64,000 bases of DNA from assembly GCF_050920415.1 (NCBI RefSeq), contig NZ_CP169309.1, one strand, 5' to 3'. How positions within the stretch are numbered: position 1 is the first letter of the stretch; every line of letters begins with the position of its first letter. The DNA comes from Escherichia coli. GTDB taxonomy: Bacteria > Pseudomonadota > Gammaproteobacteria > Enterobacterales > Enterobacteriaceae. This document shows positions 49,801 through 55,800 of this stretch, in pieces. A program made the position numbers.

Positions 49801-52800
49801 ACGCTATACCGGAAGCACATTCCGGCGAGGAGAAGCAACGATTAAGCCGGGTAATGGTATTGAGCAGGCAACTCACTGGATGCCGCTACCGGAACCGCCG
49901 CAGGAGGTGAAGTAATGAACAAGTGCAACGCTCTGCTTTATGCCATGGTGATTGGTTTCGGCCTGGCTGCTGGTATCCGGGTTTATATTGCCTGGGAGTC
50001 ATTAATCAATCTGGCGTGGAGTGCGATTCGTGGCTAAATCCCCCGCAGAACGCAAAGCCGCGCAGCGCGCTCGGCAGTCCGCCGCCGGTGAGCGCAAAAT
50101 TGAACTGGTGCTGGATAAGCAGGAGCAGGAAATGCTGGAGCGTAACTGTGCCGCCCGTCGCCCTGGTCGTGCGCCGTATGAAATGAGCGAATACATCGCG
50201 TTACTGATCCGCCAGGATGATGCACGCGTGCGCGGGCGTATAAAATCGATCAGCAGAAAACGTTGCGGTAAGTGCGGCGAGAGAGTTCCAGTTAATTCAT
50301 GCCCGTGTAATGGTGACTCGCAATGCTGGGTGACTAAAGGCTGGCATGAAACGAAATTAATAGTGTGACATGTCACGAGTAGATTATGCATGATGAATTT
50401 GATGGATTTTGAATACTGCCGCCAACTATGGCGGCTTTATTTTGCATGGTACTATTACCACAACGGTAACTATTACCACGGTGGTTATGATGCCTGCTGA
50501 ACCTAAAACCTATAAACGCAAATCAACGCAATTTAAGCCGCTCACAGCAATGCAGGAGGCTTATTGCCAGTCATACATCAAAACGCCTGAAAACCAGACT
50601 CAGGCAGCGATTAACGCAGGATTCTCCCCAAACACAGCGGCAGTTAAAGCCAGTGTCATGATGCGCGATGAACGCATTCAGAAACGGATTGCCGAGTTGA
50701 TGGAGGAGCGCAACAAACGAATGCGCGTCAGTGCTGATTACGTTCTCATGCGCCTGGTGGAGATCGACCAGATGGACGTGATCGACATCCTCAACGACGA
50801 TGGGAGCCTTAAACCAATCCGTGAGTGGCCGAAAATCTGGCGCACTACGCTTAGTGGCTTTGATCTGTCGTCGACCATCATGAACATGAACGAGGATTCG
50901 ATAGAGACAATCCTCAAAAAAATTAAATGGCCTGACAAGGTGAAGAACCTTGAGCTGATTGGTAAGCATGTTGATGTCAACGCGTTCAAAGAACGTCTGG
51001 ATGTTAATGTGAATGTGACAATTGCTGATCGCATAGCAGCAGCCAGGAAGCGACTCAAAGAACGTCAGGATGGTAATCAGTGACAGATACAGCGTTATCT
51101 CCTGAAGAGCAGTTGATCGAGGATATTGCAGGGTTCACTCACGATCCGCTTGGCTATGCCCTCTATGCGTTCCCGTGGGGGGAAGAAGGGACTGAACTGG
51201 CACATGCTACCGGCCCACGTCAGTGGCAGGCTGATGCGTTCCGAGAGATACGTGATCACCTGCAGAATCCAGCGACGCGCTATCAGCCGCTTATGCTGGC
51301 ACGCGCTTCTGGTCACGGTATTGGTAAATCCGCATTCATCTCAATGCTGATCAACTGGGGCATGTCCACTTGCGAGGATTGTAAGGTCGTGGTGACCGCC
51401 AACACCGACAACCAGCTACGAACGAAGACCTGGCCGGAAATTATCAAGTGGTCGAACCTTGCTATCACGAAAGACTGGTTTACCTGTACCGCTACCGCGA
51501 TGTACAGCAATGATCCTGGGCACGACAAGCGGTGGCGAGCTGACGCAATCCCCTGGTCTGAGCACAACACTGAGGCATTCGCCGGACTACACAACGAGCG
51601 CAAACGCATCATCGTGGTATTCGATGAAGCGTCGAACATTGCGGATCTGGTGTGGGAAGTTGCTGAGGGTGCGCTTACGGACGAAGACACTGAGATTATC
51701 TGGGTGGCGTTCGGAAACCCTACACGTAACACCGGGCGTTTCCGCGAATGTTTCCGCAAATATAAACACCGCTGGAAAACTGCGCAGATTGACAGCCGGA
51801 CGGTGGAAGGCACTAACAAACAGCAGTTGCAGAAATGGGTTGATGACTACGGGGAAGACAGCGACTTCGTTAAAATCCGTGTGCGCGGCATATTCCCGGA
51901 TGCATCTGAATTGCAGTTTATCCCTACCGGACTTACTGACGAGGCAATGAAACGGGTGGTAACCGCTGCGCAGGTTGCACATGCTCCGGTGATAATCGGC
52001 GTTGACCCGGCATACTCCGGCGTTGATGACGCTGTGATATACCTGCGGCAGGGGCTGCATAGTAAGGTGCTGTGGACCGGCAACAAGACCACTGATGATC
52101 TGATTATGGCGAAGCGTATCGCTGACTTTGAAGACCAGTATCAGGCTGACGCGGTGTTCATCGACTTCGGTTACGGTACCGGGCTGAAGTCAATCGGTGA
52201 CGGTTGGGGGCGCACATGGCAACTTGTTCCGTTCGGTGGCGCGTCTACTGACCCGCAGATGCTCAACAAGCGTGGGGAGATGTTCAACTCATGCAAGACA
52301 TGGCTGAGGCTGGGCGGCATGCTGGATGACCAGGAAACAGCGGACGACCTGTCGGCGGCAGAGTACAAAGTTCGAGTGGACGGTAAAATCGTTATCGAAC
52401 CGAAGGAAGATATCAAGGAGCGGCTTGGGCGTTCGCCGGGTAAAGGCGATGCGCTACTGCTGACGTTTGCGTTCCCTGTGTCTAAGCGTCTGCGAATTCC
52501 CGGGCAGCAGAACCAGCAAGGCAAGGCCATTACAGATTACGATCCCTATGCTTAATCCGTTAGCGGGGATAATGACGGAGATATCCTCTGGTGAGGATAA
52601 AACAAAGCCAGCTCATCGGCTGGCTGTTTGTGACATGTCACGGTGTTATTGCTCGCTTAACTTCTGCTTCAGCAAGTAACCTTCAAGCATCCAGATTTTG
52701 TTTACAGCATTCTGCCGGGCAATCTTCCGACCAATTTCCGCATCAAAGTTTTCCGGGCTTGCACAGGCGCTCTCTCCGGTGACGGTGAAGCCATTGCGCA

Positions 52801-55800
52801 GCACCAGAACGCAGAACGTCAGCAGAGAAAGTGATTCGTGCGGCTGGTAGTTTACCTCTCCGCCAGTATGTTTCGCTTTTATGGCTACGCCAAAGATACC
52901 ATCTTCTGCTGTGAAATATGCCTCCTGAGCAATAATACTCTCGATATGGTCTGGCGTAACGCGCGGCGCGGCTAAACCTTTAGCCTGAATTTCAGATTCA
53001 ATGTCTTTGTCACTCATAGTCTAATCTCACCTTAAAAAAATGCCCGGCGAACCGGGCGAACTGGAAGCAATGAGTTATGCCTTCCGTGGCTGTACTGGTT
53101 TACAGCATGAAGCCATCGCAATGGCGTCCTGCTGTAAAAAGGGCGGTGATAGTCCTTCAAGGGAAACCATCACCGCCAAGCCCCTGGAACTTCTGGCATC
53201 ACGGTCCTTAGGCGTGATTCTGGCGTGGCATGCAGGATTCGAACCTGCGACCGACCGCTTAGAAGGCGGTTGCTCTGTCCAACTGAGCTAATGCCACAAC
53301 GCTGAGAGCACTTAGCCTGTTAAGGCGCCACACTTTGTCGCGGCTCCATAAATGCTCTCATCGTTGCACCCTCGTCTCTTCCGAGGCGTCACACCGAATC
53401 GCCGGGATGGTGAATCCCCGTGCGCGGAATAAAACCGCTCGACTTGCACATTCCGGCTACCTGGTTCGTTTGCCCGAGCAAGGGAGGGTGCCCATTAAAC
53501 GTATCCAGACCGCTATCGGCGCATGTGCCATACGCCGTACTGCTCAAAATAAAATCTCACTCCACCTGTTCAATTTAACGACAAGCCAGTCAGGTTAATA
53601 ACAGGAATGCACTCTCTGCTTACCTGAAAGGTAATAATTCGTGCGTTAAATGTCAACTGTCTACGATAAATAAATCATATGTGGTTAAATTGGTAATAAT
53701 TTAATTGCGTACGGAGTCATTGATATGTGCATGGGTAGCTCACCATCAGTGCCTGCAACACCAGAAGTTCAGGCAGCACCACAGGAGCAGGATGCCGCCG
53801 TTGTTGATGCCCGCGACGAAGAAACACGTCGCCGTCGCGCTGCTGCTGGTCGTAGTTCTACGCTGCTTACCGGTTCTCAGGGTGACACATCAACCGCTAA
53901 TACCAGCGGTAAAACGCTGCTTGGTCAGTAACCGGAGTCATTGAAATGGCGGAAACAACTAAAGAGCGATTGAACAAACAGTTCGCACAACTTGAAAGCG
54001 AGCGTCAGTCGTTCGAGCCGCACTGGCGCGAGTTGAGTGATTACATCAACCCGCGTGGTTCCCGCTTTCTGACTTCTGAGGTCAACCGTAACGATCGACG
54101 CAATACACGCATTATTGATTCGACCGGGACTATGGCGGCGCGCACTCTCGCCAGCGGCATGATGTCAGGCATCACAAGCCCCGCGCGTCCGTGGTTTCGC
54201 CTGGCTACGCCAGATCCTGAAATGATGGATTATGGCCCTGTTAAGTTGTGGCTTGAGGCGGTGCAGAACCGCATGAACGATATGTTCAATAAGTCGAATC
54301 TCTATCAGTCGCTGCCGCAGTTATACGGAAGCCTCGGCACATACAGCACTGGTGCAATGGCGGTACTGGAGGATGACGATGACATCATTCGCACAATGCC
54401 ATTCCCGATAGGCAGTTACTACCTGGCTAACTCACCTCGTGGCAGTGTGGACACCTGTTTTCGCAAGTTCTCTATGACTGTTCGTCAGCTTGTTCAGGAG
54501 TTCGGGCTAAATAACGTCAGCGAATCCGTAAAAAGCATGTGGGAAAGCGGCACCTACGAGAAGTGGATTGAAGTGATGCATTCGGTTTACCCGAACATTG
54601 ACCGCGATACATCGAAGCTGGATAGCAAGAACAAGCCATTCAAATCGGTTTATTACGAGGTTGGCGGTGATAACGACAAGTTGTTGCGTGAGTCAGGATT
54701 CGATGAGTTTCCAATTATGGCTCCGCGCTGGGAAGTTAACGGCGAAGATGTTTATGGATCATCATGCCCGGGTATGCTGGCGCTTGGACCTGTTAAGGCA
54801 TTGCAGCTTCTCCAGAAGCGCAAGTCGCAGTTGATTGATAAAGCCACCAATCCGCCGATGATTGCTCCGACTTCCCTCAAGAATCAGCGCGCCTCCCTTC
54901 TTCCTGGCGACATCACGTATATCGATCAGATTACTGGTCAGGATGGTTTCAGGCCTGCTTATCTGGTTAACCCCAGTACAGCAGATCTGGTGGCAGACAT
55001 TCAGGACACTCGTCAAATCATTAACAGTGCCTACTTTGTCGATCTGTTCATGATGTTGCAGAACATCAATACCCGTTCGATGCCTGTTGAAGCGGTGATC
55101 GAAATGAAAGAAGAAAAACTTCTGATGTTGGGGCCGGTTCTGGAGCGTCTGAACGACGAATGTCTTAATCCTCTCATTGACCGCGCTTTCTCGATGATGG
55201 TGCGTAAAAACATGCTGCCGCCCCCGCCTGACGCGATGGAAGGTATGCCCCTGAAGGTCGAATACATTTCCGTCATGGCTCAGGCGCAGAAGTCTATCGG
55301 CCTGTCCAGTCTGGCGTCTACGGTCAACTTCATTGGTCAACTTGCGCAAGCGAAACCAGAAGCTCTCGACAAACTCAACGTTGATCAGGCAATCGATGCA
55401 TTCGCTGATATGTCCGGAGTGTCTCCAACCGTCATTGTTCCGCAGGAACAGGTTGAGCAGGCTCGCCAGCAACGGGCACAGCAACAACAGCAGCAACAAA
55501 TGATGGAGATGGGGATGGCGGCGGCACAGGGTGCCAAGACGCTAAGCGAAGCTAAAACTTCGGATCCGAGTGTTTTGTCAGCTATGGCGAATGCAGTTAG
55601 TGGTCAGGGTGGGCAATCACAATGACAGATTACGAAGACGATCAACTGAAAGAAGAAAACGCCCGTAAGCAACGTGACATGGCACAACGTGAAATTGATG
55701 ACATTCGCTTTGTCATGAGCAGTGAACAGGGGCGTCGCGTTGTCTGGTCTGTGCTGGAGAAAGGCCGGGTGTTTTCCGCTATCTCTCCGATGGATGCTAT

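Follow-up and report, generated by a model that had tools for sequence, protein, structure and literature searches.

The window analysed here, a 64,000-nt stretch of the Escherichia coli contig NZ_CP169309.1 (assembly GCF_050920415.1), carries in its right part a prophage of the phiV10/epsilon15 type (Uetakevirus). Between terL of this prophage and a small gp3-like open reading frame (ORF) just ahead of the portal gene, every recognisable feature lies on the minus strand, and the leader of this block is a conserved, pseudoknotted RNA, strongly supported by comparative sequence evidence and apparently undescribed. A preliminary description of the window had recognised a leftward module between terL and portal, and all of the parts listed in it were found, with slightly shifted coordinates. 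Its treatment of the segment ahead of the tRNA gene as merely a long leader has to be abandoned, because this segment is a structured RNA common to lambdoid phages and P1. We lean towards the interpretation that the block is a repressor-controlled early accessory unit, in which the promoter, the RNA and two terminators (T1 and T2) are constant and the tRNA and protein genes are exchangeable.

The RNA was defined by an alignment of 37 non-redundant cores (A1) and a covariance model built from it (R1). The core of 175 nt comprises five helices plus a pseudoknot and is followed by a further stem, P6. In the window, the two parts are located as follows.

53365–53539, minus strand: structured RNA core (helices P1–P5, pseudoknot PK2, possible pseudoknot PK1), matched by R1 with 142 bits and E = 5e-46.
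53297–53366, minus strand: stem P6 (CAACG-AU-GAGAGCA ... UGCUCUC-AG-CGUUG) with a variable insert; its strands covary, and it is present in the minimum-free-energy fold.

R1 has a single match in the window. On 90 other loci it found one copy each, bar one tandem pair in a viral contig (L058), where cores at 3995–4154 and 4802–4959 lie on the same strand; this is the sole multi-copy locus of the 90. The structure tested was drawn by hand and consists of P1, P2, the closing helix P3c, P4, P5, PK2 (the P4 loop CACC with GGUG) and possibly PK1 (GCACAU with AUGUGC). On A1, 97.3% of the pair cells are standard, as compared to 28–46% when the partners are slid by 1–3 columns. Changes on both sides of a pair occur at 12 pairs (80 cells), and none of 500 shuffles was as good. 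Pair 139–159 of PK2, a C-G pair in 32 sequences, is replaced by A-U in five and broken in none; PK1 is invariant and thus beyond covariation testing. Variable, covarying stems separate the invariant blocks of A1, which are AUGGCACAU, GGUAGCCGGAAUGUGCAAG, UUCACCA, GGCGAU.CGGUGUGAC and GGAAGAG. Covarying variants of the P6 strands include GAGAGCA/UGCUCUC, AAGAGCA/UGCUCUU, GAGAGCGCAC/GUGCGCUC and AAAAGGCG/CGCCGUUU, among others, and the last G of P6 is at the same time G1 of the tRNA-Arg. For the window copy, minimum-free-energy folding gives a z-score of −2.8, and the many G-U pairs establish the strand of the tRNA as the sense strand.

The leader had been called ORF-free, which is correct insofar as it is a non-coding structured RNA; short chance ORFs are present. 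A protein-coding function was rejected, as distances between the invariant blocks fall into all three classes modulo 3, and no sense frame is open in 57 of the 110 unique cores. It follows that the “hypothetical proteins” which the records of mEp460, Ayreon and mEp390 place over the non-coding core are probably spurious. Searches of Rfam with the core gave no match, either at gathering scores or at permissive E-values (≤10 for the window region, ≤0.1 for six other loci). RefSeq has no annotation under the core, and its invariant 15-mer was not found in the literature searched.

The comparison was based on 156 loci with the invariant leader motif, drawn from annotated phages, one genome per species, and IMG/VR. 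The interval 52556–53724 shows 98.7% identity to phage phiV10. The stretch just upstream of the tRNA gene also matches, with 70–83% identity, phages that have nothing further in common with phiV10. Of 5426 complete E. coli genomes, 1836 contain the core, as do 591 plasmids of PLSDB. All of the contexts compared are phage or prophage. Lambdoid carriers include mEp460, cdtI, 2H10, mEp390, Stx2c phages and some Stx2a phages; P1, P7, D6, SJ46 and RCS47 are carriers as well, and further copies occur in Klebsiella and Enterobacter phages and in one phage listed for Stenotrophomonas.

In the 78 lambdoid loci, the core heads the early-left operon; it follows closely on the gene of a cI-type repressor and has the same orientation as this gene. 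In Stx2a_1447, for example, the cI stop codon is followed by a terminator and an operator/promoter-like region; the RNA comes next, about 40 nt past the inferred start of pL, and about 440 nt that lack a convincing ORF separate it from the first gene. In 16 P1-like loci the core is situated after a tRNA(CAU) gene and before ban; together with five further loci with tRNA(CAU) that were not classed by marker genes, all 21 have the tRNA 14 nt upstream of the core. In P1 itself, the core belongs to the C1-controlled ban operon, 14 nt after tRNA-Ile(CAU), about 100 nt before ban and 2.3 kb from Pban. In the 50 epsilon15-like loci, which include the window, it is divergent from gp3/portal and convergent with terL, ahead of variable cargo. 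Occurrence of the same core in lambdoid, P1-like and epsilon15-like contexts argues that the RNA is independent of the genes downstream of it.

In epsilon15 (locus L004, 2750–2796) only P1 and the start of P2 remain, and T1/T2 and an intact Acb4-like gene, p50, are kept, so that this phage represents a core deletion that arose naturally. Phage D6, a relative of P1 (L011, 1941–2516), has behind the RNA a gene for a protein with a Tad2-like (Thoeris anti-defence 2) domain instead of ban; the RNA thus precedes sponge-type cargo in a second phage group. Other small RNAs were noted in some of the loci. In the locus of Stenotrophomonas phage BUCT708 (L008, 2631–2750), the stretch from the core to a strong terminator resembles RprA at 50 bits, below the gathering threshold of 70 (E = 0.001), and it may be a 3′ module of the Hfq-type small RNA kind joined to the structured RNA. 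Rfam C4 antisense RNA and isrK adjoin the antirepressor gene of Stx2a_1447 (L015, 208–396), and the cargo region of phage Tyrion (L007, 3708–3772) contains int-alpA RNA at 44 bits (gathering threshold 35.8).

Transcription of the RNA in the window would begin from the following elements.

53652–53657, minus strand: −35 element TTGACA, read from the sequence.
53629–53634, minus strand: −10 element TACCTT, after a 17-nt spacer and within the left half of the operator.
53620–53634: operator palindrome TTACCTGAAAGGTAA (TTACC-N5-GGTAA), covering the −10 element and the start site.
53540–53622, minus strand: 5′ leader, variable, containing an imperfect hairpin of some length (CCUGUU...AACAGG), read from the sequence.

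The predicted start lies near 53622. Both the near-consensus −35 element and the operator over the −10 element, as claimed in the preliminary description, are present, and this layout is retained in every epsilon15-like locus with sufficient upstream flank; all such loci have TTGAC(A/C) at the −35 position. The consensus scanner called an overlapping TAGACA-18-AATTAT as promoter instead. Neither the promoter-like sites (1, compared with 1.6 expected) nor the terminator-like sites (3, compared with 1.6 expected) returned by the consensus scan exceed chance in number, and we take promoter and terminators as real because they are conserved in relatives. Allowing for at most one mismatch, TTACC-N5-GGTAA occurs 13 times in the window, compared with 1.05 expected, and pairs of these sites lie on either side of a helix-turn-helix (Cro/C1-type) repressor-like gene at 44398–44982. 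The homologous site is annotated “repressor” in the epsilon15 record. The palindrome is a predicted prophage-repressor operator, as it is repeated at other prophage sites and overlaps the core promoter. Silence of the unit in the lysogen, which had been proposed earlier, is plausible since the −10 element is inside this repeated operator. Between promoter and RNA, epsilon15-like relatives have leaders as short as about 10 nt and as long as more than 190 nt; the epsilon15 equivalent of 53540–53622 is annotated as an RNase III site.

Two other sites in this part of the prophage are mentioned here. An operator pair at 50455 and 50473 is located inside the TTG-start ORF listed as terS (50409–51083). 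The actual start of terS, which is preceded by operator sites, is probably the ATG at 50487, in which case these operators would control a promoter for the packaging genes. Moreover, a block of about 40 nt (53664–53705; TTAAATTATTACCAATTTAACCACATATGATTTATTT, minus strand), situated between the leftward promoter and the gp3/portal genes, is nearly invariant in epsilon15-like loci of several genera and may be a portal-side promoter or regulatory site.

Downstream of P6, the block continues with the tRNA gene, the two terminators and a protein gene, and it is bordered by rightward packaging and head genes:

53221–53297, minus strand: tRNA-Arg(UCU) with encoded CCA end (ARAGORN; Rfam RF00005, 72.2 bits, gathering threshold 29).
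53136–53177, minus strand: T1, a hairpin (53177–53142) with a 14-pair stem, then CUUUUU; consensus scan.
53058–53135, minus strand: conserved non-coding T1–T2 spacer with two hairpins, including CAUUGCUUCCAGU.
53034–53057, minus strand: T2, the hairpin GCCCGG-UUCG-CCGGGC (53057–53042), then A and U7; consensus scan.
53026–53033, minus strand: Shine-Dalgarno sequence AAGGUGAG, directly after the U-tract of T2, read from the sequence.
52646–53017, minus strand: gene of a 123-amino-acid protein of the Acb4 family (PF13876, “Gp49/Sf6 gene 66”), identified by Pfam.
52606–52625: terminator hairpin common to terL and the leftward unit, head-on; consensus scan.
terS, rightward: PF03592.
51080–52555, rightward: terL.
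53725–53931, rightward: small gp3-like ORF.
53946–55625, rightward: portal, PF12236.

T1 and T2 are predicted intrinsic terminators, each with a G+C-rich hairpin, a U-tract and conserved compensatory changes. The end of T1 (...CCGCC-CUUUUUACA) is kept in relatives, tRNA present or absent. T2 is found in all of 43 non-redundant epsilon15-like loci, with the compensatory stems GCCCGG/CCGGGC, GCCCAC/GUGGGC and GCCCGCCCCGUGCGGGC, and the spacer between the two hairpins is conserved across these loci regardless of the cargo. The hairpin at 52606–52625 is listed as a rho-independent terminator in the phiV10 annotation and is kept with compensatory changes in relatives. The 13-nt sequence CAUUGCUUCCAGU (53058–53070, minus strand) equals 13 nt of the RyhB core and forms the 3′ strand of the conserved hairpin just before T2; this strand is retained in relatives from E. 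coli, Salmonella and Citrobacter. A RyhB-like small RNA before T2 was nevertheless rejected, since the Rfam score of 18 bits (E = 1.4) is not significant and the shared 13-mer is a hairpin strand.

The ATG of the protein gene follows 16 nt past the U-tract of T2, as had been described, and a junction of T2 U-tract, Shine-Dalgarno sequence and ATG precedes differing cargo ORFs in 31 of 42 non-redundant loci. A promoter internal to the T1–T2 spacer was sought for the Acb4-type gene and discarded; neither the scanner nor inspection by eye revealed one between the terminators and the gene, in agreement with the preliminary description. Its suggestion that expression requires read-through of T1 and T2 remains the natural reading, as the Shine-Dalgarno sequence abuts the U-tract of T2; the prevalence of this arrangement (31/42) suggests that the cargo is built for read-through. 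Seven of the 42 loci have, after T2, another promoter with an operator, which drives the next gene. A cargo gene for 200–290 amino acids (MFESFKELF.../MFEQFKEI...) follows T2 behind its own operator-bearing promoter in L042, L066, L146 and L116; comparison of these products with Pfam gave no clear family.

The tRNA-Arg(UCU) gene is present in 28 of the 50 epsilon15-like loci (window included), always at the same junction, where the final base of P6 is also its first. Where the gene is missing, the foot of P6 bears the conserved GUGGUGAAU plus a hairpin with a GGCUGA loop. T-arm-like tRNA pieces (GGUUCGAUUCC with stem) were observed inside the P6 insert of L015 (2700–2790), L131, L135 and L019, in which ARAGORN finds no tRNA. 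At least eight distinct ORFs occupy the protein slot, including Acb4, an HNH endonuclease, several unknowns and, in two architectures, Tad2-like (PF11195) proteins. Phage TL-2011b has the tRNA unit without the Gp49-family (Acb4-type) gene, and in Sf6 the latter is found at a different place. From this distribution, tRNA and Gp49 are judged to be independent, optional cargo. The preliminary description had regarded them as one co-regulated unit and had named scattering of these genes in relatives as an argument to the contrary; in the relatives they are indeed scattered.

AGA and AGG codons together amount to 7.4 per 1000 codons in the prophage ORFs, compared with 2.6 in the host ORFs of the window. 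The codon count proposed earlier, of late genes against the host, yields a mild enrichment in the late structural genes (4.9 per 1000), but the Acb4-type gene contains neither codon. To explain the tRNA, the supply of these codons to early and regulatory genes suffices. In the host part of the window, Rfam also detects ryfA (3492–3796) and sroE (16645–16736).

The protein encoded at 52646–53017 had been considered an uncharacterised phage protein, a description that can be replaced. It matches PF13876 over the whole profile (121.3 bits, cut-off 27; E = 2.4e-35), the family founded by Acb4 of phage SPO1, a tetrameric sponge for CBASS cyclic dinucleotides; 1,331 homologues were placed in this family, and all eight homologues tested bound 3′3′-cGAMP (PMC11722364). 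A profile of relatives of the window protein retrieved 9e4w (Acb4) from the PDB with E = 8.8e-6. An AlphaFold2 model has a predicted local distance difference test score (pLDDT) of 88, and the top 13 PDB matches returned by Foldseek are without exception chains of 9e4w (probability 1.00; target-normalised TM-scores of 0.57–0.71). Family profile, PDB profile and predicted fold thus agree in assigning the protein to the Acb4-type anti-CBASS sponges, and by analogy it should soak up CBASS cyclic dinucleotides. The earlier idea of a countermeasure to host defence therefore fits the protein, but not the tRNA.

Taken together, the constant parts of the unit are a predicted sigma-70 promoter with the operator over its −10 element, the structured RNA, and the putative terminators T1 and T2 with their conserved spacer; the exchangeable parts are the tRNA-Arg(UCU), which sits right at the foot of P6, and one or more protein genes after T2. 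The operon design is ordinary in kind, namely a repressor-controlled early accessory slot between structural genes. On loss of the repressor, host RNA polymerase would transcribe the structured RNA first. RNase P, cutting at the 5′ end of the tRNA, would free both the tRNA and the upstream RNA, the majority of transcripts would end at T1 or T2, and the fraction reading through would carry the Shine-Dalgarno sequence abutting the U-tract of T2 and so allow the sponge to be made.

As to the role of the RNA within this unit, we tentatively propose that it is the main conserved product, a processed and stable early RNA that binds a conserved host component. Its 5′ side coincides with the transcription start, with the RNase III hairpin of the epsilon15 annotation or with the 3′ end of a tRNA, and its 3′ side with the 5′ end of a tRNA or a strong terminator; ends that coincide with processing or termination sites suggest a processed, stable species. 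Its invariant parts stay constant irrespective of the genes behind it, and its linkage to tRNAs is of the kind reported for ROOL and GOLLD (PMC12286853), to which we consider it comparable. The RNA also behaves as a unit of its own, given that seven of the 42 loci have a second promoter after T2 and that epsilon15 has lost the core only. Several points weigh against this proposal. We infer the start site, processing, stability and termination from the sequence, as we do the efficiency of termination, the extent of read-through and the existence of a binding partner. The −10 element (TACCTT) is weak, and the palindromic operator might just as well belong to a rightward promoter. Most lambdoid loci and P1 are devoid of a terminator after the RNA, so that there a discrete RNA would need to be cut from the leader of an mRNA. 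Finally, a sponge needs high expression, at odds with two upstream terminators, and with T2 looking strong, passive read-through may be low.

The RNA might instead act in cis as a processive antiterminator or as a shield against Rho, in the manner of put RNA: folding while it emerges from the polymerase and remaining bound to it, the RNA would allow read-through of T1, T2 and Rho-dependent sites. Such a role, which we think doubtful, is consistent with the promoter-proximal position of the RNA in lambdoid and epsilon15-like loci, the same as that of putL in HK022 and HK639 (PMC9378689), with first operon genes in lambdoid carriers that are not N-like, and with the strong terminators that always follow the RNA in epsilon15-like loci, with promoterless cargo behind them in 31 of 42. 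Sponge proteins do require high early expression, and the invariant unpaired and pseudoknot segments would suit binding to a conserved host machine. However, the RNA resembles put neither in sequence nor in structure, each phage has one copy with no pR counterpart, and strong intrinsic terminators downstream in the lambdoid carriers number only eight in 218 kb. The P1 copy, 2.3 kb from Pban and just before ban, has no terminator to overcome, epsilon15 has lost the core and kept T1/T2 and the cargo gene, and seven of the 42 loci provide the next gene with its own operator-bearing promoter after T2. With this mechanism, strong expression of the cargo would be expected only from the promoter at the head of the unit. 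In its most general form, the leader would be the first recognised representative of a new class of phage RNA, a pseudoknotted element unrelated to put with which P1-like, lambdoid and epsilon15-like phages begin their repressor-controlled early transcripts, and which acts on the host transcription machinery as antiterminator or Rho shield and drives early and counter-defence genes; we give this a minor chance, and favour, though tentatively, a processed stable early RNA.

The two other explanations attribute less to the RNA, or something different. The preliminary description implied a passive leader, with tRNA and Gp49 as one co-regulated unit serving translational tuning or protection from defence systems that attack tRNA. 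All parts are indeed on one strand behind one promoter, with no internal promoter-like site, and AGA/AGG codons are enriched in the prophage relative to the host genes of the window. Yet what serves as leader is a structured, conserved RNA, present also in loci that lack the tRNA and in loci that lack Gp49, the tRNA is found in only 28 of 50 loci, Gp49 occurs independently of it, and the Gp49 gene itself has no AGA or AGG codon, compared with 4.9 per 1000 in late genes; the known target of the Acb4 family is cyclic dinucleotides, not tRNA (PMC11722364). The comparative data refute the notion of a conserved unit, and the explanation as a whole is quite improbable. The RNA might alternatively be a riboswitch-like sensor or attenuator that responds to a metabolite or host factor and sets termination at T1/T2 or translation of the following gene. 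Its multi-helix junction with pseudoknot and invariant junction nucleotides is aptamer-like, terminators follow in epsilon15-like and BUCT708-like loci, and the P4 loop UCACCA is complementary to a nearby GGUG(U)GA as well as to a distal conserved UGGUGA. We nonetheless regard a sensor as very improbable, considering that T1/T2 lie 190–650 nt from the core, with the tRNA or variable inserts in between, too far for a usual expression platform, that most lambdoid and P1 copies lack a terminator, and that Rfam returned no riboswitch match. A switch in which the P4 loop pairs with the distal UGGUGA was discarded, as the distal segment does not covary with variants of the loop.

A small N-like ORF after P6 (L015, 2798–2890), coding for an Arg-rich peptide of 30 amino acids (MVNAQADARKTLQLLRKRAVRRGNQTPVRV), was likewise considered and is unlikely to be a gene, as its length and stop codon are not conserved and no Shine-Dalgarno sequence precedes it. 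It starts at the conserved GUGGUGAAU, and its N-terminal codons overlap the GGCUGA-loop hairpin.

What has emerged is an unannotated, covariation-supported RNA in P1, Stx-converting phages and the epsilon15 group, which stands at the head of early transcripts in three groups of temperate phages that are unrelated to one another. As it would be transcribed first when the phage is switched on, it probably matters for early development or host takeover. Within the epsilon15 group, the RNA indicates a hot spot at which Acb4 (anti-CBASS) and Tad2-like (anti-Thoeris) sponges are exchanged behind a common junction, and the combination of terminator and Shine-Dalgarno sequence offers a simple guide to new counter-defence genes. 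Should the RNA control elongation, it would represent a second, independent RNA-only antitermination system in coliphages; should it be a stable particle, the ROOL/GOLLD type of tRNA-linked phage RNA would be extended to a genetically tractable host.

Among known systems, the put RNAs of HK022 and HK639 invite comparison by position: they, too, are phage RNAs just downstream of a repressor-controlled early promoter (pL), which does not apply to P1, and the lambdoid carriers of the present RNA resemble HK022 and HK639 in having no N-like gene among the first operon genes. However, put comprises about 70 nt and two stems, compared with a 175-nt core, five helices and a pseudoknot. Moreover, the core is single-copy, is also found mid-operon in P1, and is mostly carried by phages without downstream intrinsic terminators. 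For sequence comparison, putL of HK022 was located via a primer sequence (PMC9378689), and the annotated putL-like RNA of HK639 was used. Homology was rejected, as blastn, nhmmer and R1 with filters off gave a best E-value of about 1 against both phages. A short likeness of P1 to put stem I (ACGGCG...CAUGCGUCG), noticed by eye in the put RNAs of HK022 and HK639, is not significant.

The lambda nut site shares the location at the head of the pL operon, and the 3′ strand of P6 (UGCUCUUU) is boxA-like and followed by the hairpin GCGCA-GGCUGA-UGCGC; in the window, in contrast, the tRNA replaces this hairpin. A boxA/boxB nut site was dismissed, because the boxA-like stretch is variable and changes in step with the strand it pairs with, which marks it as a stem rather than a boxA, and the first downstream genes are not N-like.

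ROOL and GOLLD are RNAs of phages and prophages with multiple helices and pseudoknots, often found beside tRNA genes and sometimes containing tRNAs in a variable region (PMC12286853). The present RNA corresponds to them in its phage or prophage origin and its adjoining tRNA, which here is fused to P6, with T-arm-like pieces in the P6 insert of some loci. It differs by a smaller core, by its occurrence in phages of Enterobacteriaceae and by its usual place as the 5′-terminal element of an early operon that encodes proteins, instead of as a free-standing gene; the Rfam models of ROOL and GOLLD gave no match at E ≤10 in the window region or at E ≤0.1 in six other loci.

The cargo has more familiar counterparts. 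The window protein is only about 20% identical to SPO1 Acb4 and has a longer N-terminal part (123 as compared to 96 amino acids), but it belongs to the same family, PF13876, and its predicted fold matches 9e4w. The tRNA-Arg(UCU) conforms to phage-borne tRNAs of this specificity as a rare-codon tRNA on a temperate coliphage. The slot as a whole resembles phage morons and anti-defence slots, in that variable genes, among them Acb4 and Tad2-like sponges, occupy a fixed position between structural genes; unlike morons, most of the cargo described here is promoterless and joined to one common junction (terminator, U-tract, Shine-Dalgarno sequence) behind a long conserved RNA.

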